Source: Candidatus Heimdallarchaeota archaeon
Lineage (GTDB): Archaea > Asgardarchaeota > Heimdallarchaeia > Heimdallarchaeales > Heimdallarchaeaceae
DNA: 51,359 nucleotides
Assembly: GCA_019057375.1 (NCBI GenBank)
Contig: DXJF01000040.1
Coordinates: 1-51,359, forward strand
Direction: 5' to 3'
Of the stretch, positions 12,922 through 32,679 are shown one piece after another; the stretch's first letter is position 1, and each line of letters begins with the position of its first letter. Both the position numbers and the translations under genes were made by a program. Under the pieces are notes generated by a model. The model had not been told where the DNA came from. It saw only the letters and a list, made by a program, of their open reading frames with translations, and did no database searches.

Positions 12922-12995
12922 TGGCAGACCCAAGGCGATTTGAACGCCTGCCACAGGAACCAGAATCCCGTATCCTTCCACTAGACGATGGGTCT
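12922..12995 (-). tRNA. tRNA-Gln(CUG), CCA encoded, A1-U72, G73
   Basis: AGACCCA TC GTCTAGTGGAAGGAT A CGGGA TTCTGGT TCCTG TGGC AGGCG TTCAAAT CGCCT TGGGTCT G CCA folds as a full cloverleaf. Confidence 0.92.
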
Positions 12996-13829: not shown

Positions 13830-14558
13830 ATGAAAAACATGAGAAGAATTTTGATCACTGGAAGTAGTAGAGGATTGGGTTTCGAATTTGTAAGACAGTT
13901 ATTAGAAAATGGGGATAAGATTATTGCCTGCAATAGAGATCCTTTCAGATATTCAGATTTTTTGGAATTAAGGGATAAATTTGGGGAGAAACTAGTTCTT
14001 GTTGATTTGGATGTTTCTAGTAAAGATTCTATTGATAATGCTTACTTTCTAATCTCTAAAGAAATAGATGGGTTGGATATACTGATTAATAATGCTGGTA
14101 TCCGCTTTGGAGGAGATGAGAAGTTTAATGATGAATTGGGTAGATTGTAAAAAGAGGATTTTGGTAAGATTTTCACAGTAAACTCTGTTGCACCATTATT
14201 GATTGTTGAGAAGTTTTTGCCCCTAATAAAAACTGGAAAGAACCCCATTATTGTTAATATTTCATCAACAAGTGGGAGTATAGGTAGAAGAAGTCGTAAA
14301 GGAGGAGGATACAGTTATAGTGCAAGTAAGGCAGCATTGAATATGATCACTAAAGCACTTTCTATAGATCTGAAAGAAGATGGAATTACAGTTGTTTCTA
14401 TTCATCCTGGTTGGGTTAAAACTACAATGGAATACACAGAAAACGCACCATTAACAACTTATGAATCAATAAAGGGAATGAAAAAGGTAATTGAAAATCT
14501 GTCTATAGAAGAAACTGGAAAGTTTTTTGATTGGGAAGGAAACGAATTACCTTGGTAA
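13830..14558 (+). pseudogene. Tandem SDR paralog interrupted by one in-frame TAA (14148-14150)
   Basis: ORFs 13830..14150 and 14199..14558 share a frame; reading through gives DELGRL*KEDFGKIFTVNSVAPLL, colinear with the paralog's ILGEIYKEDFSKVFLVNSIAPLL. Confidence 0.85.
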
Positions 14559-14591: not shown

Positions 14592-14666
14592 TGGTAGCCC
14601 TGAGAAGATTCGAACTTCTGTCTGTAAGCCTAAACCTACAATGCTTGGCCACTACACTACAGGGCT
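14592..14666 (-). tRNA. Gln-like tRNA gene with non-canonical anticodon arm (6-nt loop UUUAGG; UUA or UAG depending on register)
   Basis: AGCCCTG TA GTGTAGTGGCCAAGCAT T GTAGG TTTAGG CTTAC AGAC AGAAG TTCGAAT CTTCT CAGGGCT A CCA; acceptor, D and T arms intact; identity undetermined. Confidence 0.75.
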
Positions 14667-14700: not shown

Positions 14701-14710
14701 GATTTTAAAT
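14701..14710 (-). promoter_or_regulatory. Putative TATA box (ATTTAAAATC) with purine-rich BRE-like run for the atypical tRNA
   Basis: Same 10-mer occurs upstream of tRNA-Gln(UUG) at 14893-14902; preceded by GAAAGGAAGG. Confidence 0.4.
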
Positions 14711-14771: not shown

Positions 14772-14847
14772 TGGTAGTCCCTGGGAGATTTGAACTCCCG
14801 GCGCCAGATTCAAAGTCTGGAATGTTTCCAGGCTACACCAAGGGACT
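14772..14847 (-). tRNA. tRNA-Gln(UUG), CCA encoded, A1-U72, A73
   Basis: AGTCCCT TG GTGTAGCCTGGAAACAT T CCAGA CTTTGAA TCTGG CGCC GGGAG TTCAAAT CTCCC AGGGACT A CCA. Confidence 0.93.
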
Positions 14848-14918
14848 TTGAAAGATGTCAAACTTCTTTGACAACCGTTCATTTCTTGTTTCGATTTTAA
14901 ATTTTTCTAATGCTCTGC

Positions 14919-16844
14919 TTATTTTTTAGCCCATGAATCTCTCAAAGTAATTATTCTGTTTAAGACCAATTTTTCTTTTGTTGAATCGACTAAGTCTATA
15001 ACAAAATACCCATTTCTTTCAAATTGGAACCTTGATCCTGGTTCTTTATCCTTTAGGAATGGTTCCACATATGATTTCATTATATTTATAGAATCGGGAT
15101 TGATATAATCTTTGAACTCTTTTCCTTCTTCAGTATCCATTGGATTCTCCTTAGTGTACATTCTATCATATAATCTTACTTCAACTTCTAGTGCAAAATC
15201 TGCAGATAGCCAATGAATTGTTCCTTGAACTTTTCTTCCATCTGGAGATTCTCCTCCTTTTGTTTTTTGATCATAGGTACAATGAATTTCAACAATATCT
15301 CCTGTTTCTTCATCTTTAATTGCTTTCTCACATTTTATGAAGTAAGCATACTTTAATCTGACTTCTTTTCCTGGTGAAAGTCGATAATAATCTTCTGGAG
15401 GATTTTCCATGAAGTCATCTTGTTCAATGTAGAGATTTCTAGTAAATTTAACCTTTCGAGAACCCATTTCTTTGTCAGAAGGATGATTTGGTACTGTAAA
15501 ATCTTCTTCTATATCATCAGGATAATTTGTTATAACAAGTTTGATTGGATTTATTACACCCATTACTCTTGGGCATCTTTTGTCCAAATCTTCTCGTATA
15601 TAATGTTCAAAGATAGACATATCGATAAGTTTTTCACGTTTGGTGAAATTAATAGCTAAAGAGAAGTTGCGTACTGCTTCTGGTGTATATCCTCTTCTTC
15701 TCATTCCTGCTATTGTGAGCATTCGAGGGTCATCCCATCCGTTGACATAACCTTCCTCTACAAGCATCCTCAGTCTTCTTTTACTAAGGACCATGTAGGA
15801 GAGATTCATTTTAGCAAATTCTATTTGTTGAGAATGATGAATTGGATTACCATCTTCATCGTCTAATTGATCTATATACCAATCATAAAGTGGTCTATGT
15901 ACTTCGAATTCCAGAGTACAGATTGAATGAGTTATTCTTTCGATTGAATCCTCTAAACCATGAGCCCAATCATACATTGGATAGATGCACCACTTATCAC
16001 CAGTATTATGATGACTTGCATGAAGGATTCTGTATACTATCGGATCTCTCATTAACATATTAGGATGAGCCATATCGATTTTTGCTCGAAGAACTCTTTC
16101 CCCGTCCTTAAATTCTCCAGTTTTCATTCTCTCAAATAGATCTAGATTTTCTTCAATTGATCTGTTTCTGTATGGACTTTCCTTACCATGTTCTGTAATG
16201 GTTCCTCTCATTTCACGTATTTCTTCAATACTAGAATCATCTACATATGCTAATCCTTTCCTTACTAATTGAACCGCGTACTCGTAGAGTTGGTCAAAGT
16301 AATCAGAAGCAAAGAGAAGTCTATCTTCATAATCTACCCCTAACCATAGAACATCATTAATTATTGAATCAACAAATTCTTCTTCTTCTGTTAGAGGATT
16401 TGTATCATCAAATCTTAGGTTGAATTTACCTCCATATTCTACTGCAAAGTTATAGTTTCGATTAATGGAATATGCATGACCAACATGAAGCCATCCATTG
16501 GGTTCTGGAGGGAATCGAGTATGAACCTTTCCTCCAAATCTTCCGGTTCGGTTATGTTCTTCAATGATTTCTCGTATGAAATCAGCTTCTTCCTGAACTA
16601 TTTCTTCCTTCTTTTGCAGAAGTTCTGGATACTTTTCTTGTGCGAGTTGTTGTATTTCTTCAGGTTTTAATGAATTAATATATTCAATTTTCTTTTCTAA
16701 TATTTCTCTGATGCTGTCTGCATCCTTTCTCAATTCAGGTTCAGCTTTAAAGACTCTACCCATTACAGGACCTAAAGCTGCTTTCCCGTGTTCTAAAGCA
16801 TTTTCAACAGAATGTTTTTCGCACAATCTTTCTACTGATGTCAT
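14919..16844 (-). CDS. glnS: Glutamine--tRNA ligase (GlnRS) with archaeal GluRS-like N-terminal domain
   Basis: TRFPPEPNGWLHVGH (HIGH), LRFDDTNP, WCIYPMYDWAH, ITHSICTLEFE, VLSKR (KMSKS), GWDDPRM, GMRRRG, GRKVQGTIHW, FQFERNGYF, all GlnRS-type; ATG 16844 is the likely start (the track's 33-aa extension is AT-rich noise). Confidence 0.88.
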   Translation of the reverse strand: MTSVERLCEKHSVENALEHGKAALGPVMGRVFKAEPELRKDADSIREILEKKIEYINSLKPEEIQQLAQEKYPELLQKKEEIVQEEADFIREIIEEHNRTGRFGGKVHTRFPPEPNGWLHVGHAYSINRNYNFAVEYGGKFNLRFDDTNPLTEEEEFVDSIINDVLWLGVDYEDRLLFASDYFDQLYEYAVQLVRKGLAYVDDSSIEEIREMRGTITEHGKESPYRNRSIEENLDLFERMKTGEFKDGERVLRAKIDMAHPNMLMRDPIVYRILHASHHNTGDKWCIYPMYDWAHGLEDSIERITHSICTLEFEVHRPLYDWYIDQLDDEDGNPIHHSQQIEFAKMNLSYMVLSKRRLRMLVEEGYVNGWDDPRMLTIAGMRRRGYTPEAVRNFSLAINFTKREKLIDMSIFEHYIREDLDKRCPRVMGVINPIKLVITNYPDDIEEDFTVPNHPSDKEMGSRKVKFTRNLYIEQDDFMENPPEDYYRLSPGKEVRLKYAYFIKCEKAIKDEETGDIVEIHCTYDQKTKGGESPDGRKVQGTIHWLSADFALEVEVRLYDRMYTKENPMDTEEGKEFKDYINPDSINIMKSYVEPFLKDKEPGSRFQFERNGYFVIDLVDSTKEKLVLNRIITLRDSWAKK

Positions 16845-16969
16845 AGTGTGTTTTTTGACGCATAGAGAGTAATAAATTTTTAGTATATTGTTTTTTTTTA
16901 AAAAAAATGAGAAAAAAGAATTTTCACAAAAGTTTATTTGCACCCAATCTATATTTTGTATTGATTCAA

Positions 16970-18728: not shown

Positions 18729-20936
18729 CTATAGTCTTAAGGGAATGATATTTCGTGATATATTTCCTAAGTTTCTAGCTGCATTCAAGTCACTATCTAA
18801 ACTTAAATTGCACATATTATTTCGACACTGGAAAAGTTTTCCTATTCTAATTCCCTCTTCTCCACACCAAGAGCAAATCTTTGAGCTTTTAAAAGGATTA
18901 GTTAAATAAATCCTTATTTTCTCTCTCCTAGCTAATTTAGAAGTAAACTGGATAATTTGGCTAAAGAACCAATGAACCTGCCAAGTTGATAGGAAAAACC
19001 CACCTTTCATCTTTGAGATATGTTTTGCCCACCTTAAGTCTTCAAAACGTATTGAATCTACATTATTGTACTTCGCAAATTCCACTATTCGTGTACTAAT
19101 TTGGTGAATTATCTCAGTATGAATATTTTGTATGCTCAACCAGCAAGATTTGTATTCTCTTCTTAAATACCAATATTCTTTAGTGTGGTTGTATTTTGGA
19201 TACTGTTTATTCTTTTTCCTTTTTAGCTTGTTCTTATTCTTCAATTTGGTTAGTCTTGCCTGAATAGAATACACTTTACATTGTAAATTCAATAACTTGG
19301 ATTTTAAGTTTGCATAATTAAAATATAGTTCCTTTTCTTTTGGTGATTTTTCATTTACATTAACGAACCATCTATCTTTTTTTCCGTTTATTTCTTTTTG
19401 ATCAAGGAATTTTCTTTGCAGTTCAATATTGCCTTGAGTAATACTCAAAGTAGCAAAAGTTTTCAAACCTAAATCACAATTGAGTATTTTTTGTTCTTCA
19501 AGTGGTTTTTCTTTTAGTAGCTTAGGTAAACGCTTCAAAAACGGAATAGCAAGTTTTAGCTTACTACCTCTAGCCATTAGTACACCACGAGAAGGAGTAG
19601 CTCCTCTTTTGATTAACTCATAAAAACGCTCTGGTTTTACTAGCTTATATTCACTTCTTATATTTGGATAGAAGGATAGAGAGATGTTTACTTCATTCTG
19701 ATTATAAATAAGTTTGTAAATCTGACCATCATCTATTCCGAGAGGAATTGAAGATTTTGTAAATTTTGGAGTTTTAAGATATTTCATTGGCTTTTCGATA
19801 AATTTCTGCAAAAAGATTCTCACTTTTGGAAGGTAAATGTGTTTTAACTGATTTATAGCTAGTCTAATTATATGGTAATTAATTAACCTGATATAAAATG
19901 AAATAAAGTCTTTCTTAAGATCTCCAGATAAATAAATACGAAGATTAAACTTATTGGGAAAAATAAGATGTTTCAGAAAAATATTAGAAGGTATTTTCCT
20001 ATTCTTATTTAATTGGTTTTCAATTTCTTTGAGTAACTTGTCCTTAGTCATATCATTATTAATTTTGTTTTTGAATCCAATCATCCAAAGCTCTTTCTTT
20101 AGCAACCATTCATCTGTTTCAACTGAGAGTAAGTCTTTTGTTTTGCATATTTGATAAACTACTTTAGTTAGATGTTGTTTATTTATTTTTGACAGATTAC
20201 CTTTTGACACAAGAATTTTTTTTATCCTTTTAAAACGACGAGTCAACATCGAAGAAGCTCTAGCACTGAATTTATTCAATAGTGTAGATTTGTAAACCTC
20301 CGAATATTGTTTCACAAGTATTTGTTTTATGTCTTCTTTTTGTATAGAAAATTCTATGAACAATTGCTGTAATTCTTTAAGAAGATGTTTTTTTAAGTGC
20401 AAAAAACAATTATTAATAACAAATGAAGACCAGTTTACTTTTTTCCTTGAATCTATTTTTTCCCTGATTTGTCTCATATATTCAATAGGTAGCAAAATCT
20501 TATACTTTAGAGAAGTATTCTTATTAAAATCACAATATTTCCAGTGTTCAAAATGCAAATCTAACCAAGTAGATTTTTCACTTAATGTTTGAGCTATTAA
20601 TGTATAAACACATTTAGTGCTCTTTGAATTTCTAATCGAGAAGTATGCATATTGTGCAGCACAGCGTACTAGTCTTTCTCTTATTTTTAATTGACGTAAA
20701 GCTTCCTTTAGTTTTGGTTGTTTAGTTACTCTTGTATAGAATTGTTTTACTGCTACCAAACTTTCGTTTTCGAATATTAAATCAGATAAATTTATTCCTT
20801 CTTTGATTAGTAAATTAACAGCAGAAGAGTGTTTATCAAAAACATCAGTATCAAGCTCCAACTCATTTTCTATAGATTCTATGTCAAATATTCTAGTAAT
20901 TATTTCTGTAGAGATTGAAGCCACCTTTGAAATCAT
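18729..20936 (-). CDS. tnpB: Large (735 aa) TnpB/Cas12-superfamily RNA-guided endonuclease
   Basis: RuvC-I LNCDLGLKTFAT, RuvC-II IRFEDL, SKICSWCG..FQC..C zinc finger, RuvC-III DSDLNAARNL; very basic; no tnpA or CRISPR adjacent. Confidence 0.88.
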   Translation of the reverse strand: MISKVASISTEIITRIFDIESIENELELDTDVFDKHSSAVNLLIKEGINLSDLIFENESLVAVKQFYTRVTKQPKLKEALRQLKIRERLVRCAAQYAYFSIRNSKSTKCVYTLIAQTLSEKSTWLDLHFEHWKYCDFNKNTSLKYKILLPIEYMRQIREKIDSRKKVNWSSFVINNCFLHLKKHLLKELQQLFIEFSIQKEDIKQILVKQYSEVYKSTLLNKFSARASSMLTRRFKRIKKILVSKGNLSKINKQHLTKVVYQICKTKDLLSVETDEWLLKKELWMIGFKNKINNDMTKDKLLKEIENQLNKNRKIPSNIFLKHLIFPNKFNLRIYLSGDLKKDFISFYIRLINYHIIRLAINQLKHIYLPKVRIFLQKFIEKPMKYLKTPKFTKSSIPLGIDDGQIYKLIYNQNEVNISLSFYPNIRSEYKLVKPERFYELIKRGATPSRGVLMARGSKLKLAIPFLKRLPKLLKEKPLEEQKILNCDLGLKTFATLSITQGNIELQRKFLDQKEINGKKDRWFVNVNEKSPKEKELYFNYANLKSKLLNLQCKVYSIQARLTKLKNKNKLKRKKNKQYPKYNHTKEYWYLRREYKSCWLSIQNIHTEIIHQISTRIVEFAKYNNVDSIRFEDLRWAKHISKMKGGFFLSTWQVHWFFSQIIQFTSKLARREKIRIYLTNPFKSSKICSWCGEEGIRIGKLFQCRNNMCNLSLDSDLNAARNLGNISRNIIPLRL

Positions 20937-28011: not shown

Positions 28012-29535
28012 TTAATGAGAGAAAATTTCTCTTTCTTTTTTGCTTCTATAAGAATCAAGTTGAGGAGCATGTAATAATTCCCTTTTTACGCTCTCATAAA
28101 GAACATCAGAATCCAGTATTGATCCAATAGATTTTATTGCATTAACTATAAATTCTGCTTTTTCAATTAGGTCTTGTTTTCTTTCTAGAACATAAGGATC
28201 CCATATCATCGCAGGTTGACCTTCTAGACATTTAGTAATTACTTGCTTTGCTATTTTACAGCTTTCAATAACATTTTCAGGGGTTGCAGCATGGTTTGCT
28301 TCACTATAACTTACAACATGAATAATATGTGGATTAAGTTGCATCTGCAACATTGTTGATTGTGCGAGTTGCCCTTTTGCCATATCTAAATCAATTGGGT
28401 AACTAAATAATCCTGTTCTTGTTTGAGTATAAACAGTAAAATTATCATCTTGAAGCGATTCAATCATTTCTTTTTGAGCAAGCATCTTAGCCAAATCATC
28501 TCTTTGATTTGTTTGAGGTGGAGTATTAAACATATATTGTGAGATAAAATTTCTTACTCCCAACTTTTTACAAATATAAGCACCCAAAAATCCTGCTGCT
28601 ATCGCTACTTCATCCTTTGCATCTCTCAAAGACCAATGATGTGATTCAAGGATCTCAACAGGGATTTCTTTTTCAGCATGCCATTTTATTGCATCAAGAT
28701 GAGCTTGTATTGAGGATTTTAACTCCATTGGACCTCTTCCATCCATTTGGTTAAACCAAAAGATAGGTATTGCAGCCCAAGCATTATTTATTGTGTCAAC
28801 ATAAAGCTGAGCTAATTCGATCAAATCATCTGTTCCTGCATAAGCCCTTATCAAGGGGTAATTTCCTACTCTCGAAGCTTGAAAAAGCTGTTCATAGTCT
28901 TCTTTTGTCCTGACAGGAACACCTCCAGCACCTTTACCAGAACTCATTCTTTCAGGATGGAAAAAGTGTGCTTGTGCATTTTGGTCAGTTCCTAAAGAGA
29001 TAATATCAAGACATCTACTTTTTGCTATCTTTCTAATTCCTTTTGTTGTTTCTTCTAAAGAAGGCAAACCAAAATGATGTCTTAAAACAGGAAAAGGATT
29101 TTTTGAATCTATTCTTTCAATAATATGTTGAGGAGGTACTAGAAATTTATCCTCTACAAAACTTCCTTTAAGATAAGCAATCGCTTGATCTGCATCATCT
29201 CCTTTAAAATAAACACTAAAAAAACCATCTTGTTTTTCGCTTTGAATTAATTCAGGTAAGCCTCCTAGGATAAATTCTCTTTCACTTAAACCTTCTTCAG
29301 TAATTCTTCTTTTCAATTGTCTTAAGATTTTTATTCCTGCTTTAGGAGTTAATCTATAACTCAAACCTACTATGTCAGGGTTATGCTCTCTAATTGCATT
29401 AATGAGTTGTTCAGTTTCTACAGCAGGTCCCAAGAAAATTGTTTCATAGCCTTGTTTTTCTGCTAATTTCAAAAATCTATGAATTCCTGCAATATGGACA
29501 CAATCACCAATACAGGCACCCAAGATTTTTTTCAT
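28012..29535 (-). CDS. Cobalamin-binding domain fused to an uncharacterised catalytic (probable TIM-barrel) domain
   Basis: N-terminal GDCVHIAG variant of DxHxxG, IVGLSYRL, FILGG Rossmann-type B12 domain; ~370-aa C-terminal domain. Confidence 0.75.
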   Translation of the reverse strand: MKKILGACIGDCVHIAGIHRFLKLAEKQGYETIFLGPAVETEQLINAIREHNPDIVGLSYRLTPKAGIKILRQLKRRITEEGLSEREFILGGLPELIQSEKQDGFFSVYFKGDDADQAIAYLKGSFVEDKFLVPPQHIIERIDSKNPFPVLRHHFGLPSLEETTKGIRKIAKSRCLDIISLGTDQNAQAHFFHPERMSSGKGAGGVPVRTKEDYEQLFQASRVGNYPLIRAYAGTDDLIELAQLYVDTINNAWAAIPIFWFNQMDGRGPMELKSSIQAHLDAIKWHAEKEIPVEILESHHWSLRDAKDEVAIAAGFLGAYICKKLGVRNFISQYMFNTPPQTNQRDDLAKMLAQKEMIESLQDDNFTVYTQTRTGLFSYPIDLDMAKGQLAQSTMLQMQLNPHIIHVVSYSEANHAATPENVIESCKIAKQVITKCLEGQPAMIWDPYVLERKQDLIEKAEFIVNAIKSIGSILDSDVLYESVKRELLHAPQLDSYRSKKEREIFSH

Positions 29536-30660
29536 TTACTCTCCTCCAACAATAGCTCCAACTGCAGCTTTATATTCTGTTATTGTTTCAAGTTCAGACA
29601 CTATTCTTAAATCTTCAAAAATTGTTTTAGCATCAAGCCCTAATCTATTTAAATTTCTTCCTTGACTTCTAAAATCAACCTTCAGCTCCTCTGATGCTTT
29701 TTCTATCAACTCATCGATATATCTTGTATCAACCCCAATGGATTTACCAAGTTCAGAAAAGGGAACTAGACCTGTAGGAATGTCCTCTGTTAAATATCTC
29801 ATATCGAAAGTTGTAGGAGCTGTTAATCCTGCATAAAAAGGATTGTTATGTAAAGCATCAAAAAGACTCGAGTTTGGGAGACTATATCTTTCACACAACC
29901 ATTCTTTTAATGATTGAACTTCTACTCCAAAGCTTCTTGCAATGGTTCGTCTTTCATTGTCAACTTGTTCCATATAGTCAACTACTTCTCTTGTAGCCCC
30001 GTCTCTGTAAAAATCAAATGGTTCTTTATTTCTTATTCTCTCTTCATTTAACAAAGTTATTGTAGGATGGAACACAGCTCCAATATTTCCTAAACTTGTT
30101 GTTAAGAAGTTTTCCACACCATAAAACTGAGGATAATCTTCATTTAGCATTGAAATTACCTGAGAAGTGCGATGATTTGGTATAACTGATAAAGAAACTG
30201 AATTCTTAATCCCCTTAACATCGCTTAAACCGGGTTTTATGATCCTTGTAGCGTAAATCAAAGTATTAGCTTCTGCTATAGTAACATCAGCAGTCAAACC
30301 TCCTTCTAAAAGAGCATTCATAAATTCTAAACTACCAAAAGTTCTTCCAGGATTTAGAACAATTGTTTGCTCCTCTTGAAGATGGGGAGCTAAAGCAGTA
30401 GCAATATCATAATGTCCAGTAGCTGTTGTAACGACCATAATTAATTCTGTCCCCCTCACAGCCTCTGAAATATCATTAGTAACTAGATTTAATTTTCCCT
30501 TTGAATGTATTTCTCCTTGTAATTCAATTTCCTTCTTTCTCATAAGAAGACGAATTCTATCTGTGGATCTGTTGTAGAGATTAACCTTATTTCCTTTGCT
30601 TGCTAGATAACCTGCAATTGCTTGTCCTCCACATCCAGCTCCTATTATGGCAATATTCAC
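29536..30660 (-). CDS. NAD/NADP octopine/nopaline (opine) dehydrogenase family protein
   Basis: IAIIGAGCGG, LNPGRTFG, NIGAVFHP, VDNERRTIA, RYLTEDIPTGL; GTG 30660 (or 30672). Confidence 0.88.
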   Translation of the reverse strand: MNIAIIGAGCGGQAIAGYLASKGNKVNLYNRSTDRIRLLMRKKEIELQGEIHSKGKLNLVTNDISEAVRGTELIMVVTTATGHYDIATALAPHLQEEQTIVLNPGRTFGSLEFMNALLEGGLTADVTIAEANTLIYATRIIKPGLSDVKGIKNSVSLSVIPNHRTSQVISMLNEDYPQFYGVENFLTTSLGNIGAVFHPTITLLNEERIRNKEPFDFYRDGATREVVDYMEQVDNERRTIARSFGVEVQSLKEWLCERYSLPNSSLFDALHNNPFYAGLTAPTTFDMRYLTEDIPTGLVPFSELGKSIGVDTRYIDELIEKASEELKVDFRSQGRNLNRLGLDAKTIFEDLRIVSELETITEYKAAVGAIVGGE

Positions 30661-30791
30661 CAAATCACCCACTTAGCATTATGTAAGAGGGGTGATTTTA
30701 TTCTACACACTATTTTTCTCGTAATAAAGTAGTTTTGATAAACTAATTCCAAGTTAGAGTTGTTTTCCACGTATTTTGTTTCTTTATACAT
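30657..30791 (-). CDS. Putative 44-aa uORF/leader peptide coupled to the opine dehydrogenase
   Basis: AGGTG-A6-ATG start; its TGA overlaps GTG 30660 (GTGA coupling); not in the ORF track. Confidence 0.4.
   Translation of the reverse strand: MYKETKYVENNSNLELVYQNYFITRKIVCRIKSPLLHNAKWVIW
30662..30698 (-). promoter_or_regulatory. Hairpin sequestering the SD/start region of the opine dehydrogenase
   Basis: Perfect 9-bp IR AAATCACCC/GGGTGATTT with inner CTTA/TAAG and CAT/ATG pairs. Confidence 0.55.
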
Positions 30792-31230
30792 TTTTTTCAC
30801 CTAATTGTTTTCTAGTATTGTAGCTTTGACTTAGTAGGAATCTTTCTTGAAGTTTCACCGTTTTAAACGTTCTAAGTAAATAGAGTAGTTTTCAATATTA
30901 AATATCATAAACGAAGTCAATTTTCGTTAGGGATACCATTTTTCTTCATAATCGAGCATTACAGTTAGTCAATCATATAACTATTCATATCTTTAAATAG
31001 TTATTCTTTTATTATCCTATATATTAATAAGTTCTTATAATAATTATTAAGTAATATTGTGATGAATCTATGATTAATTAAAGTAAAGTATAATTAATAT
31101 GTTGTTTTCAATAGTAATTACTATAAAAGAAAGCTTAAAAGATGATATTTTTCTTTGTTTAATTGGAAATAATCTTTTAAAATACCAATCTATTTTATAC
31201 ATAACTGATTAATTATTTGAGTTGATTGAG

Positions 31231-32679
31231 ATGAGACCTACTATCAATATTCTTGAAAAAGAACTAAAGGAAAAAGTTGTAATAGAAGCAATGGAAATAC
31301 TAGAAGAACTCGGTTTTTTTGTCGAAAATGATGAAGCAATACAAATCCTACAAAATGAAGGATTAAATGTTGACACAATTAACAGACGAGTAAAAATCCC
31401 TCCAGATCTTATTAAGAAATCATTAAAAACTGCCCCCTCATCAGTTCCGCTCTATGATAGAGACGGCAATTTAGTTACTAAATTAGAGGGAGACAATATC
31501 TGTTTTGACCCTGGTTCAGCAGCACTTAATGTTTTAGATCCAGAAACTAATGAAATTCGATCCGCGGTTACAAAGGATTTTGTTAATTTCACTAAGGTTG
31601 TTGATCAACTTGAACATATACATGCTCAAAGTACAGCTATAATTTGTTCAGATGTACCAGAAGAAATTGGTGATAGATATAGAATGTTAATTTCATTGAT
31701 TTACTCAAAAAAACCAATTGTAACTGGAACATTTGCAAAAGAATCATTTGAAGTAATGAAAGATATGTTGGTAGCTGTAAGAGGAAGTGAAGAAGAACTA
31801 AGAAAAAAACCTCTTGCCATATTTGATGCTTGCCCCTCACCACCTTTAAAATGGAGTGACTTGACATGTCAAAGTATAATTGATTGTGCTAGATATGGCA
31901 TCCCTTCTGAATTTGTCTCTATGCCAATGACAGGTGCTAATGCACCAGTTACTATTCTCGGAGCAATCGTTCAACATGCAGCAGAAACATTAGCTGGATT
32001 AGTTATAACTCAACTTGTATCTCCAAGAGCTCCTGTAATTTGGGGAGGTTCTCCCGCAGTTTTCGATCTACGAAAGGCTACCACACCCATGGGTTCTATT
32101 GATACTATGATTCTTGATCTCGGTTATGTTGAAATTGGCAAATATCTCAATCTACCTACTCATACTTATCTAGGTATGTCAGATACCAAGATACTTGATA
32201 TGCAATCTGGATTTGAATCTGGTATGGGAGCTCTTTTAGCTGGAATCAAGGGGGTAAACATGATTTCTGGAGCTGGTATGATTGATTTCGAAACAACTCA
32301 AAGTATTCAGAAAGTTGTCATTGATAATCAGATGTGTGGAATGATTCACAAATTCAACAAGGGTATTGTTCAAAGAGATGAACCTATTGCAAAAAATCTG
32401 TTAATCGATTTGGAAGAGAAAACTCATTTACTTTCACATGATCACACATTGAAATGGTTCAGGGAGGAACATTACATTCCTAATCAAATTATCGATCGAT
32501 CAACCAATGAAGAATGGATAAACAAAGGAAGAAAATCTGTTACTCAAAGAGCAACTGAAGAAGTAGATAAGCTCTTGAAGAAATATTCAGGTAGTTCTTT
32601 AGATAAAGAGAATATTTCTAGTCTGATAAACATAATGAGTTACAAGGATATAGATTTTAGAAAGTTACTAGGGATTTAA
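31231..32679 (+). CDS. Non-pyrrolysine trimethylamine methyltransferase (MttB/MtgB superfamily)
   Basis: SPPLKWS, SMPMTGANAPVTILGA, GAPVIWGGS-like APVIWGGS, SDTKILDMQSGFES, GVNMISGAGM; Ser (TCT 32218-32220) at the Pyl-equivalent position. Confidence 0.9.
   Translation: MRPTINILEKELKEKVVIEAMEILEELGFFVENDEAIQILQNEGLNVDTINRRVKIPPDLIKKSLKTAPSSVPLYDRDGNLVTKLEGDNICFDPGSAALNVLDPETNEIRSAVTKDFVNFTKVVDQLEHIHAQSTAIICSDVPEEIGDRYRMLISLIYSKKPIVTGTFAKESFEVMKDMLVAVRGSEEELRKKPLAIFDACPSPPLKWSDLTCQSIIDCARYGIPSEFVSMPMTGANAPVTILGAIVQHAAETLAGLVITQLVSPRAPVIWGGSPAVFDLRKATTPMGSIDTMILDLGYVEIGKYLNLPTHTYLGMSDTKILDMQSGFESGMGALLAGIKGVNMISGAGMIDFETTQSIQKVVIDNQMCGMIHKFNKGIVQRDEPIAKNLLIDLEEKTHLLSHDHTLKWFREEHYIPNQIIDRSTNEEWINKGRKSVTQRATEEVDKLLKKYSGSSLDKENISSLINIMSYKDIDFRKLLGI

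Follow-up and report, generated by a model that had tools for sequence, protein, structure and literature searches.

According to a 2022 review, glutaminyl-tRNA synthetase (GlnRS) is absent from all archaea, the reason given being that archaeal tRNA-Gln is incompatible with it (PMC9499178). A second paper mentions, without detail, that GlnRS was transferred to Archaea (PMC8879553), and a preprint places GlnRS beside cox genes in Hodarchaeales and Kariarchaeaceae (10.1101/2024.07.04.601786). In Deinococcus radiodurans GlnRS (PDB 2HZ7; Deniziak et al. 2007, PMC1865053), a C-terminal YqeY domain is reported to raise tRNA-Gln affinity in cis; the same paper notes free-standing YqeY proteins in organisms that lack GlnRS, pointing to other roles. 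The N-terminal domain of archaeal glutamyl-tRNA synthetase (GluRS) has been named YqeY domain as well, and is disordered in its only crystal structure (3AII; Nureki et al. 2010, PMC2978374). Here we analysed a contig of 51,359 nucleotides from Candidatus Heimdallarchaeota archaeon (GCA_019057375.1, DXJF01000040.1; the whole contig is called the window below), which carries a gene for a chimeric GlnRS, two tRNA-Gln genes and a third tRNA gene with a shortened anticodon loop. We found no description of the N-terminal graft or of the short-looped tRNA in the literature, and unlike in the lineages of the preprint, no cox genes are present in the window (10.1101/2024.07.04.601786). Our analysis makes it probable that this GlnRS is an imported bacterial-type enzyme with an added YqeY-like domain, that it charges the adjoining pair of tRNA-Gln, and that an older tRNA-Gln has been retired.

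The GlnRS gene and its core

The host assembly is a Heimdall-group Asgard metagenome-assembled genome (MAG) of 3.47 Mb in 159 contigs, 89% complete and with 33% GC. Near-identical proteins are named Candidatus Heimdallarchaeaceae at NCBI. In what follows, families of the class are denoted f, genomes G, contigs C and loci L. The GlnRS features are:

14919..16844, minus strand: gene of the chimeric GlnRS, 641 aa and a TAA stop codon (TIGR00440, Pfam domains)
16605..16844, minus strand: N-terminal YqeY-like helical domain, residues 1–80 (homology to the archaeal GluRS N-domain)
14922..16586, minus strand: bacterial-type GlnRS body, residues 87–641, from the DFIREII helix onwards (equivalent to residue 9 of E. 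coli GlnS)

The open frame extends over 14919–16943 on the minus strand, and the ATG at 16844 gives the 641-aa protein. This start Met is supported by the homologues in 29 related genomes, which align from the same Met.

The protein scored 697.7 bits against the GlnRS family TIGR00440 (cut-off 425.8), with profile positions 1–524 of 524 lying on residues 107–640. Its score against gltX_arch (TIGR00463) was 376.2 bits, under the cut-off of 401.75, and that alignment begins at profile position 2; therefore the N-terminus is GluRS-like. Pfam identified tRNA-synt_1c (residues 106–421), tRNA-synt_1c_C (424–525) and its C2 domain (542–617). The class I motifs are HVGH at residues 120–123 and VLSK, which aligned to E. 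coli VMSK. All four GlnRS motifs quoted in the original prediction (WCIYPMYDWAH, ITHSICTLEFE, GWDDPRM and GRKVQGTIHW) were found in the translation.

Residues 87–641 aligned with residues 9–551 of E. coli GlnS at 53% identity (554 columns, 11 gaps). Among PDB sequences, the protein scored 665 bits with P. aeruginosa, 656 with E. coli and 509 with D. radiodurans GlnRS, versus 414 with human, 402 with yeast and 227 with the archaeal GluRS 3AII. The best non-Heimdall database matches were bacterial GlnRS at 62–66% identity, including those of Chloroflexota, and named bacterial species representatives of many phyla were 56–63% identical. The core is thus of bacterial type, as had been proposed.

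The glutamine-pocket residues R30, Y211 and C229 (E. coli numbering) were kept in 25 of 25 Heimdall GlnRS, and the C229 column was Arg in all six archaeal GluRS of the alignment. The residues that read U35 and G36 of the anticodon (R341, R402, Q517 and R520) were likewise kept in 25 of 25. The R402 loop was a gap in the six archaeal GluRS, as described previously (PMC2978374). At the position of Asp235, the E. coli residue that reads G2:C71 and G3:C70, this enzyme has Val, and none of the 25 Heimdall enzymes has Asp; Asp was also missing in 15 of the 35 bacterial GlnRS sampled. With the family scores on either side of their cut-offs and the specificity residues kept, the presence of a real GlnRS in an archaeon was borne out, and its predicted activity is that of a glutamine-specific class I tRNA synthetase.

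The N-terminal domain

When residues 1–100 were used alone, the sole significant match among PDB sequences was to residues 2–81 of 3AII, the GluRS of M. thermautotrophicus (E 2e-10). An exhaustive search of a library of 1.8 billion proteins gave 63 matches. Ten full-length matches were checked by NCBIfam, and all ten were archaeal-type GluRS, aligned at their N-termini with 35–44% identity and E down to 9e-10. Five of the clusters that were looked up had source names, which were Nitrososphaerota/Thaumarchaeota, Thermoprotei or Korarchaeota. Pfam gave no match in the first 100 residues, and a word-indexed protein search with residues 1–100 returned the chimeras themselves only.

In a 54-row alignment (A2), N15 was invariant, and A16, G20, A22, V27, P36 and N57 were conserved in at least 90%. 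The consensus common to the GlnRS and GluRS N-domains is ALxNAxxHxGKAxxGxVxGKI..PELR...VNSL....YPELL. The N-terminal sequence KHSVENALEHGKAALGPVMGRVFKAEPELRKDA...EKYPELL, on which an archaeal GluRS-like extension had been predicted, is present in the translation. That prediction stood as far as homology is concerned, for the first ~80 aa match 3AII; it did not stand as to a private extension, because the domain is the named YqeY domain.

The AlphaFold2 model of the domain had a pLDDT of 89.9 and five helices. A Foldseek search of the domain against PDB gave no match because the domain is disordered in the 3AII crystal structure. In an exhaustive VIA-align scan, the YqeY structures 1NG6 (Z 5.2, root-mean-square deviation 1.9, 47 residues) and 8XJE (Z 5.0, deviation 1.8) and residues 119–182 of human GlnRS (Z 5.8) were found, all in the noise range for small helical bundles.

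The nearest non-chimeric relatives within the class were the N-termini of 580–590-aa frames of family f5 (at most 44% identity, E 7.5e-18). The N-domain of the organism's own GluRS was only 22–24% identical to that of GlnRS, and the whole proteins 30%. Since the nearest relatives of GluRS size belong to the same class and the own GluRS reaches just 24%, the domain would have been grafted from a Heimdall-type GluRS and not from the present resident gene. The suggested graft of the host GluRS N-domain therefore fits the host lineage (44%, same class); the part naming the host's own gene was given up, as the present GluRS is not a recent donor.

Three further observations concern this domain. The N-domain of the own GluRS is unusually divergent, most of all in the sub-group that has the tRNA with the 6-nt loop, a pattern that is phylogenetically confounded. 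Residues 3–42 match five repeats of P0139, a 4004-aa DUF1542 surface protein of Leuconostocaceae (E 3.7e-6), which is probably a helical-repeat resemblance. The automatic NCBI name of these archaeal genes is 'GlnRS/YqeY domain fusion protein'. However, NF011291 was matched at profile positions 9–558 of 769 only, and the protein stops with the GlnRS body, lacking a C-terminal YqeY of ~215 aa. The name thus rests on the GlnRS body, the YqeY part of NF011291 being unmatched.

The adjoining tRNA genes

The tRNA features, all on the minus strand, are:

14772..14847, minus strand: tRNA-Gln(UUG), with A1:U72, A73 and encoded CCA (ARAGORN; RF00005, 58.2 bits)
14894..14901, minus strand: TTTAAAAT box, TATA-like candidate promoter 5′ of tRNA-Gln(UUG), in an invariant block
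12922..12995, minus strand: tRNA-Gln(CUG), with A1:U72, G73 (the bacterial-type discriminator) and encoded CCA (ARAGORN; RF00005, 52.4 bits)
14592..14666, minus strand: tRNA-Gln-derived gene with the 6-nt anticodon loop UUUAGG, A1:U72, A73 and encoded CCA
14702..14709, minus strand: TTTAAAAT box 5′ of the short-looped tRNA, conserved in the three aligned loci that have this tRNA; putative promoter

tRNA-Gln(UUG) is located 71 nt downstream of the GlnRS stop, and was found in the same position in 11 of 11 aligned genomes of the genus. An invariant AGAAAAATTTAAAAT block, which includes the TTTAAAAT box, precedes it in the 11 aligned loci. ARAGORN found just two tRNA-Gln genes in the genome (UUG and CUG), both of them beside GlnRS. 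Relatives of tRNA-Gln(UUG) among loci L006, L007, L008, L011 and L012 carry a ~32-nt T-loop intron in four genomes and an anticodon-loop intron in one, and ARAGORN missed the gene there because of these introns; tRNA-Gln(UUG) of the window has no intron.

The third gene was labelled '?(Stop|Leu)(ta)' by ARAGORN. It scored 50.2 bits with RF00005 (threshold 29), with one loop position deleted and an otherwise regular cloverleaf. A covariance model made from it found orthologues on the GlnRS contigs of G024, G017, G025, G012, G015, G008 and G004, and the next-best matches in the genomes of the class were nearly all ordinary tRNA-Gln genes. In G016 and G030 there are tRNA-Gln(CUG)-like bodies with the aberrant 7-nt loops AUUUAUU and AUGUUCU. 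In total, orthologues were present in 10 genomes, 10 of the 31 in the family.

The loop is UUUNGG (N = A, C or U), with 6 nt in seven genomes. It corresponds to the canonical Heimdall loop UUUUGGN without position 38, with position 35 free to vary. Outside the anticodon arm, the short-looped tRNA shares 79–86% identity with ordinary tRNA-Gln from the other Heimdall families, more than with its own genome's working tRNA-Gln genes. It does not show the combination of a 7-nt loop with U33, purine 37 and a fixed anticodon by which a decoding tRNA is recognised. From this we infer that it is the displaced original tRNA-Gln, which would have left decoding and would now be under structural selection for some other role.

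A decaying pseudogene of a duplicated tRNA-Gln would also have a defective and variable anticodon loop, and would be expected to be missing from part of the genus, as is the case here (10 of the family's 31 genomes have it). We regard this as unlikely, though deserving some weight, for the rest of the molecule does not look like decay. Over six distinct sequences, 98.4% of the stem cells were paired and both sides had changed in 10 of 21 pairs, which 0 of 500 shuffles reached. The anticodon stem itself was 100% paired with four of its five pairs covarying, and all four helices were supported. Between genomes whose flanks are ~12% apart, only 1 of 75 positions differed, and the CCA end, A73 and the 5′ TTTAAAAT box were all kept.

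The fit between enzyme and tRNA

The GlnRS of family f5 is without the N-domain, and its matches begin at residue ~85. The f5 GlnRS genes adjoin a UUG and CUG pair of tRNA-Gln with G73, mostly without encoded CCA. If the appended domain and retuned tRNAs were alternative fits of a bacterial enzyme to archaeal tRNA, this is the pattern that would be expected, and it was seen. By analogy with the Deinococcus GlnRS, the appended domain most likely raises affinity in cis for archaeal-type tRNA-Gln with A1:U72.

Another reading is that the domain is no enhancer of tRNA affinity and serves in contacts with proteins (GatDE, GluRS or a multi-synthetase assembly), or is a neutral leftover. It would agree with the disorder of the domain in its sole crystal structure (PMC2978374), with the free YqeY proteins mentioned for organisms lacking GlnRS (PMC1865053), and with the sister family f5, which has the same enzyme without the domain. 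However, all of the chimeric clade has conserved the domain, the residues shared with GluRS are kept and the predicted fold is confident (pLDDT 89.9), so that a neutral leftover is unlikely. In addition, the only YqeY–GlnRS fusion with measurements uses its domain for tRNA binding, and the f5 enzymes lacking the domain are paired with tRNA-Gln genes carrying the bacterial G73. We consider this alternative rather improbable, and an affinity-raising role remains our preferred reading.

Distribution and phylogeny of GlnRS

GlnRS homologues were found in 44 of the 83 genomes of the class, among them the single-contig genomes G006, G007, G055 and G057. The presence is patchy, covering three of the seven families; the chimeric clade consists of f1 and f7. 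Within genus g1 there are two GlnRS types with a mutual identity of only ~66%, and f1 and f7 are interleaved in the GlnRS tree (loci L004–L032). This mismatch between tree and taxonomy suggests transfer of a GlnRS–tRNA cassette among Heimdall lineages, or old paralogy.

The first tree of the core had 66 rows, was made by a quick posterior mean site frequency (PMSF) run, and was without closer outgroups. It gave the chimeric clade (f1 and f7) a support of 100 and placed f5 in a separate clade. Two independent imports (the chimeric clade and f5) were first read from this tree. In the approximately unbiased (AU) test under the site-heterogeneous model, however, the tree with all Heimdall sequences together was better by 26 log-likelihood units (p 0.755). 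With the same set under LG+F+G4, monophyly was rejected neither for Heimdall (p 0.233) nor for the bacteria (p 0.284).

The second tree had 98 rows, namely the 66 plus 32 GlnRS from viral contigs, including giant-virus ones, with archaeal GluRS as a further outgroup. Adding giant-virus and divergent GlnRS made nestedness testable. Some of the 'viral' rows are bacterial glnS beside prophages, and a constraint of bacterial monophyly is therefore invalid in this set. The eukaryote-like group came first, followed by E. coli-type and other lineages, and both Heimdall clades fell inside the bacterial crown. Regrafting the chimeric clade outside the clades of 59, 61 or 64 rows cost 55–150 log-likelihood units and was rejected (p-AU ≤ 0.002). 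Joining the two Heimdall clades in this set cost 47–68 units (p 0.016 and 6e-5).

Heimdall lineages may have acquired GlnRS once or twice: the joint tree was better by the above 26 units under the site-heterogeneous model and rejected under LG+F+G4 with a fixed backbone, so that the two tests point opposite ways. We accept that the core of the chimeric GlnRS is on the bacterial side, nested in the bacterial crown and not beside eukaryote-like GlnRS. The suggestion that this lineage might be informative about the origin of GlnRS thereby found no support.

A reading of that kind would make the Heimdall GlnRS with its YqeY-like domain a survivor of the original GlnRS, derived from archaeal-type GluRS before eukaryotes, from which bacteria obtained GlnRS and then lost the domain. 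The order of a YqeY-like N-terminal domain and a GlnRS core indeed parallels eukaryotic GlnRS and archaeal GluRS, the N-domain of human GlnRS was among the weak structural matches (Z 5.8), and the 66-row set did not reject a position of Heimdall beyond all of the sampled bacteria (p-AU 0.284). But all placements outside the crown were rejected once eukaryote-like and more divergent GlnRS had been added, and the core is 56–66% identical to GlnRS of many bacterial phyla, with yeast and human reaching just 402–414 bits. The core also joins the N-domain exactly at the bacterial N-terminus. The N-domain is 35–44% identical to those of archaeal GluRS, which is the distance expected of a separately evolving graft, and the enzyme is present in only three of seven families. 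These results leave the survivor reading very little credibility, and an imported bacterial core remains the better explanation.

The retained indirect route

The genome also encodes an archaeal GluRS (gltX, contig C3, 419.4 bits), GatE (contig C63, 390 bits) and GatD (C63, 483 bits), so the gltX, gatD and gatE for which a genome check had been proposed were all found. Each is above its curated cut-off and without internal stops. GatD kept the motifs TGGT, HGTDT and RKMH, and scored 401 bits with P. abyssi GatD. Because GluRS and GatDE are still encoded beside GlnRS, the genome appears to encode two routes to Gln-tRNA.

The own GluRS (L001, G000:C3) had the longest terminal branch, 2.67 changes per site versus 0.8–1.8 for the other archaeal GluRS. 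In a class-wide comparison, the GatE of f1 (here G000:C63:71057-72967) scored only 375–410 bits on gatE_arch versus 560–650 in f3, f4 and f7. Two copies of GatE are found in f7 (~640 and ~430 bits), the second of which is on the GlnRS contig in G072 and G075. In genomes with GlnRS, constraint on the indirect pathway may have been relaxed or altered.

Proposed course of the replacement

The course of events that we propose is as follows. A heimdallarchaeial lineage would have gained a bacterial GlnRS by horizontal transfer, followed by an N-terminal fusion with the ~80-residue YqeY-like domain carried by archaeal GluRS. The enzyme would most likely charge the adjoining UUG and CUG tRNA-Gln directly with glutamine, reading U35 and G36 through the same residues as E. 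coli GlnRS, and the appended domain would lift its affinity for A1:U72 tRNA-Gln. The third tRNA would be the lineage's older tRNA-Gln minus one nucleotide of the anticodon loop and with position 35 variable; it would no longer decode, and would be kept as a folded, CCA-ended RNA.

More tentatively, the locus might show an archaeal replacement of glutamine charging caught in mid-course. The imported GlnRS and its own tRNA-Gln pair would decode, and the original tRNA-Gln would persist under selection as a non-decoding CCA-ended RNA, maybe as a partner of GluRS/GatDE, as a regulator or decoy of a synthetase, or as an aminoacyl donor outside translation. We put this forward as a rather unlikely possibility.

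Several points weigh against the proposed course as a whole. The change of Asp235 to Val is weak evidence of retuning, and the structural scores of the N-domain (Z 5.0–5.8) all lie within the noise of small helical bundles. Eukaryotic GlnRS was represented by giant-virus sequences, and among these rows a higher score with human than with E. coli GlnRS was checked for L219 alone. The placement tests of the 98-row set held the rest of the tree fixed under LG+F+G4, which overstates rejection. Finally, with the MAG 89% complete, more tRNA-Gln genes are possible.

Neighbouring genes and the in-frame TAA

The second of two tandem short-chain dehydrogenase/reductase (SDR) genes, at 13830–14558 on the plus strand, is split by a single in-frame TAA at 14148–14150. 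In G024 and G017, the orthologous SDR genes encode Tyr at this position (LGKLYKEDF). The TAA would thus be a recent change from TAY to TAA, since the orthologues carry Tyr there; judged by these sequences, a young nonsense mutation or an error of sequencing accounts for it, and not conserved recoding.

This TAA was considered as the target of the short-looped tRNA, acting as a UAA (ochre) suppressor that inserts Gln by way of the adjoining GlnRS. ARAGORN offers 'Stop' (UUA) for the tRNA, a 7-nt loop AUUUAUU with the anticodon UUA is a possible folding of its relatives in G016 and G004, and the SDR gene is 440 bp away. This candidate was rejected by the Tyr orthologues, which come from genomes with the same tRNA, and by the absence of TAA enrichment: TAA makes up 51.5% of long-frame ends and 52.2% of the single stops lying between two frames of 100 codons or more. 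The comparison of stop usage in the genome and the SDR orthologues thus gave no signal of UAA read-through. Moreover, the loops vary among close relatives (UUUAGG, UUUCGG, UUUUGG and AUGUUCU), so no single codon assignment fits, a 6-nt loop is unable to present a normal anticodon, and a GlnRS that keeps its U35 and G36 readers would find the anticodons UUA, UAG and UCG poor substrates. Suppression is therefore highly improbable, and we keep to a displaced, non-decoding tRNA-Gln.

A 735-aa open reading frame (18729–20936, minus strand) with a C-terminal Cas12f1-like TNB domain (TnpB-like) is located 1.9 kb upstream of GlnRS. Between them are a DUF389 membrane protein and a small zinc-ribbon open reading frame. 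At 28012–32679, an MttB-family methyltransferase (485 aa, unbroken frame) is found near a B12-binding-domain protein and an octopine-dehydrogenase-like gene, which looks like a corrinoid methyltransferase cluster.

That the gene is foreign to the archaeon, on a bacterial contaminant or mis-assembled contig, has next to no probability in spite of the estimated MAG contamination of 4.95% and the bacterial type of the core. In two families, 31 genomes (32 with this one) have an orthologue that shares both the N-domain and the downstream tRNA, and closed single-contig genomes are among them. The GC (34.4%) and GC3 (22%) of the gene are the same as in the neighbouring genes, which include those for a RIO kinase and a TnpB-like protein. 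The A1:U72 pair of the adjoining tRNAs is archaeal, and so is the N-domain itself. Contamination or a chimeric contig is excluded for practical purposes because of the matching GC and GC3 and the homologues in the 44 class genomes, single-contig ones included, and the contig assumed to be archaeal is indeed so.

Comparison with known systems

This GlnRS is a natural counter-example to the statement that archaea lack the enzyme, and it is found in the archaeal group closest to eukaryotes. With an enzyme that has the YqeY-like domain and A1:U72 tRNAs on one side, and the f5 enzyme without the domain and G73 tRNAs on the other, nature provides two designs by which the tRNA-incompatibility hypothesis becomes directly testable. 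Because the evidence points to a bacterial ancestry, caution is needed in tracing the eukaryotic enzyme back to Asgard GlnRS. The conserved short-looped tRNA-Gln is a new element of the window, and may show the fate of a displaced tRNA.

Conserved, CCA-ended tRNA-like genes that are unfit for decoding are known elsewhere, such as the non-proteinogenic tRNA-Gly of staphylococci and tRNA-Other of Bacillus cereus. Unlike these, the present gene combines the body of a tRNA-Gln with a 6-nt loop, and lies beside an imported GlnRS.

Compared with bacterial GlnRS (E. coli GlnS, PDB 1GTR, 1QTQ and 1O0B; P. aeruginosa, 5BNZ; TIGR00440), residues 87–641 align end to end, and the HIGH/MSK-type motifs, the glutamine pocket and the anticodon readers are all common to both. 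The Heimdall enzyme differs in its archaeal host, in 86 extra N-terminal residues and in Val in place of Asp235. E. coli tRNA-Gln has U1:A72 and G73, whereas the Heimdall partner tRNAs have A1:U72 and one of them A73. With the archaeal non-discriminating GluRS (3AII, residues 1–85), there is direct sequence homology over residues 2–80 (E 2e-10), but in Heimdall the domain sits on GlnRS. The GlnRS of D. radiodurans (NF011291) is similar in that a bacterial-type GlnRS carries a helical domain, resembling YqeY and the GatB tail, taken from the older indirect pathway; there the domain is C-terminal and of 215 aa, while the Heimdall one is N-terminal, of ~80 aa and from archaeal GluRS. Eukaryotic GlnRS (human 4YE6, yeast 4H3S) has the same order, a helical N-terminal appendage on the tRNA side followed by the core, but the Heimdall core is nearer to bacteria and its appendage is shorter. 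This architectural likeness is best read as convergent re-acquisition.

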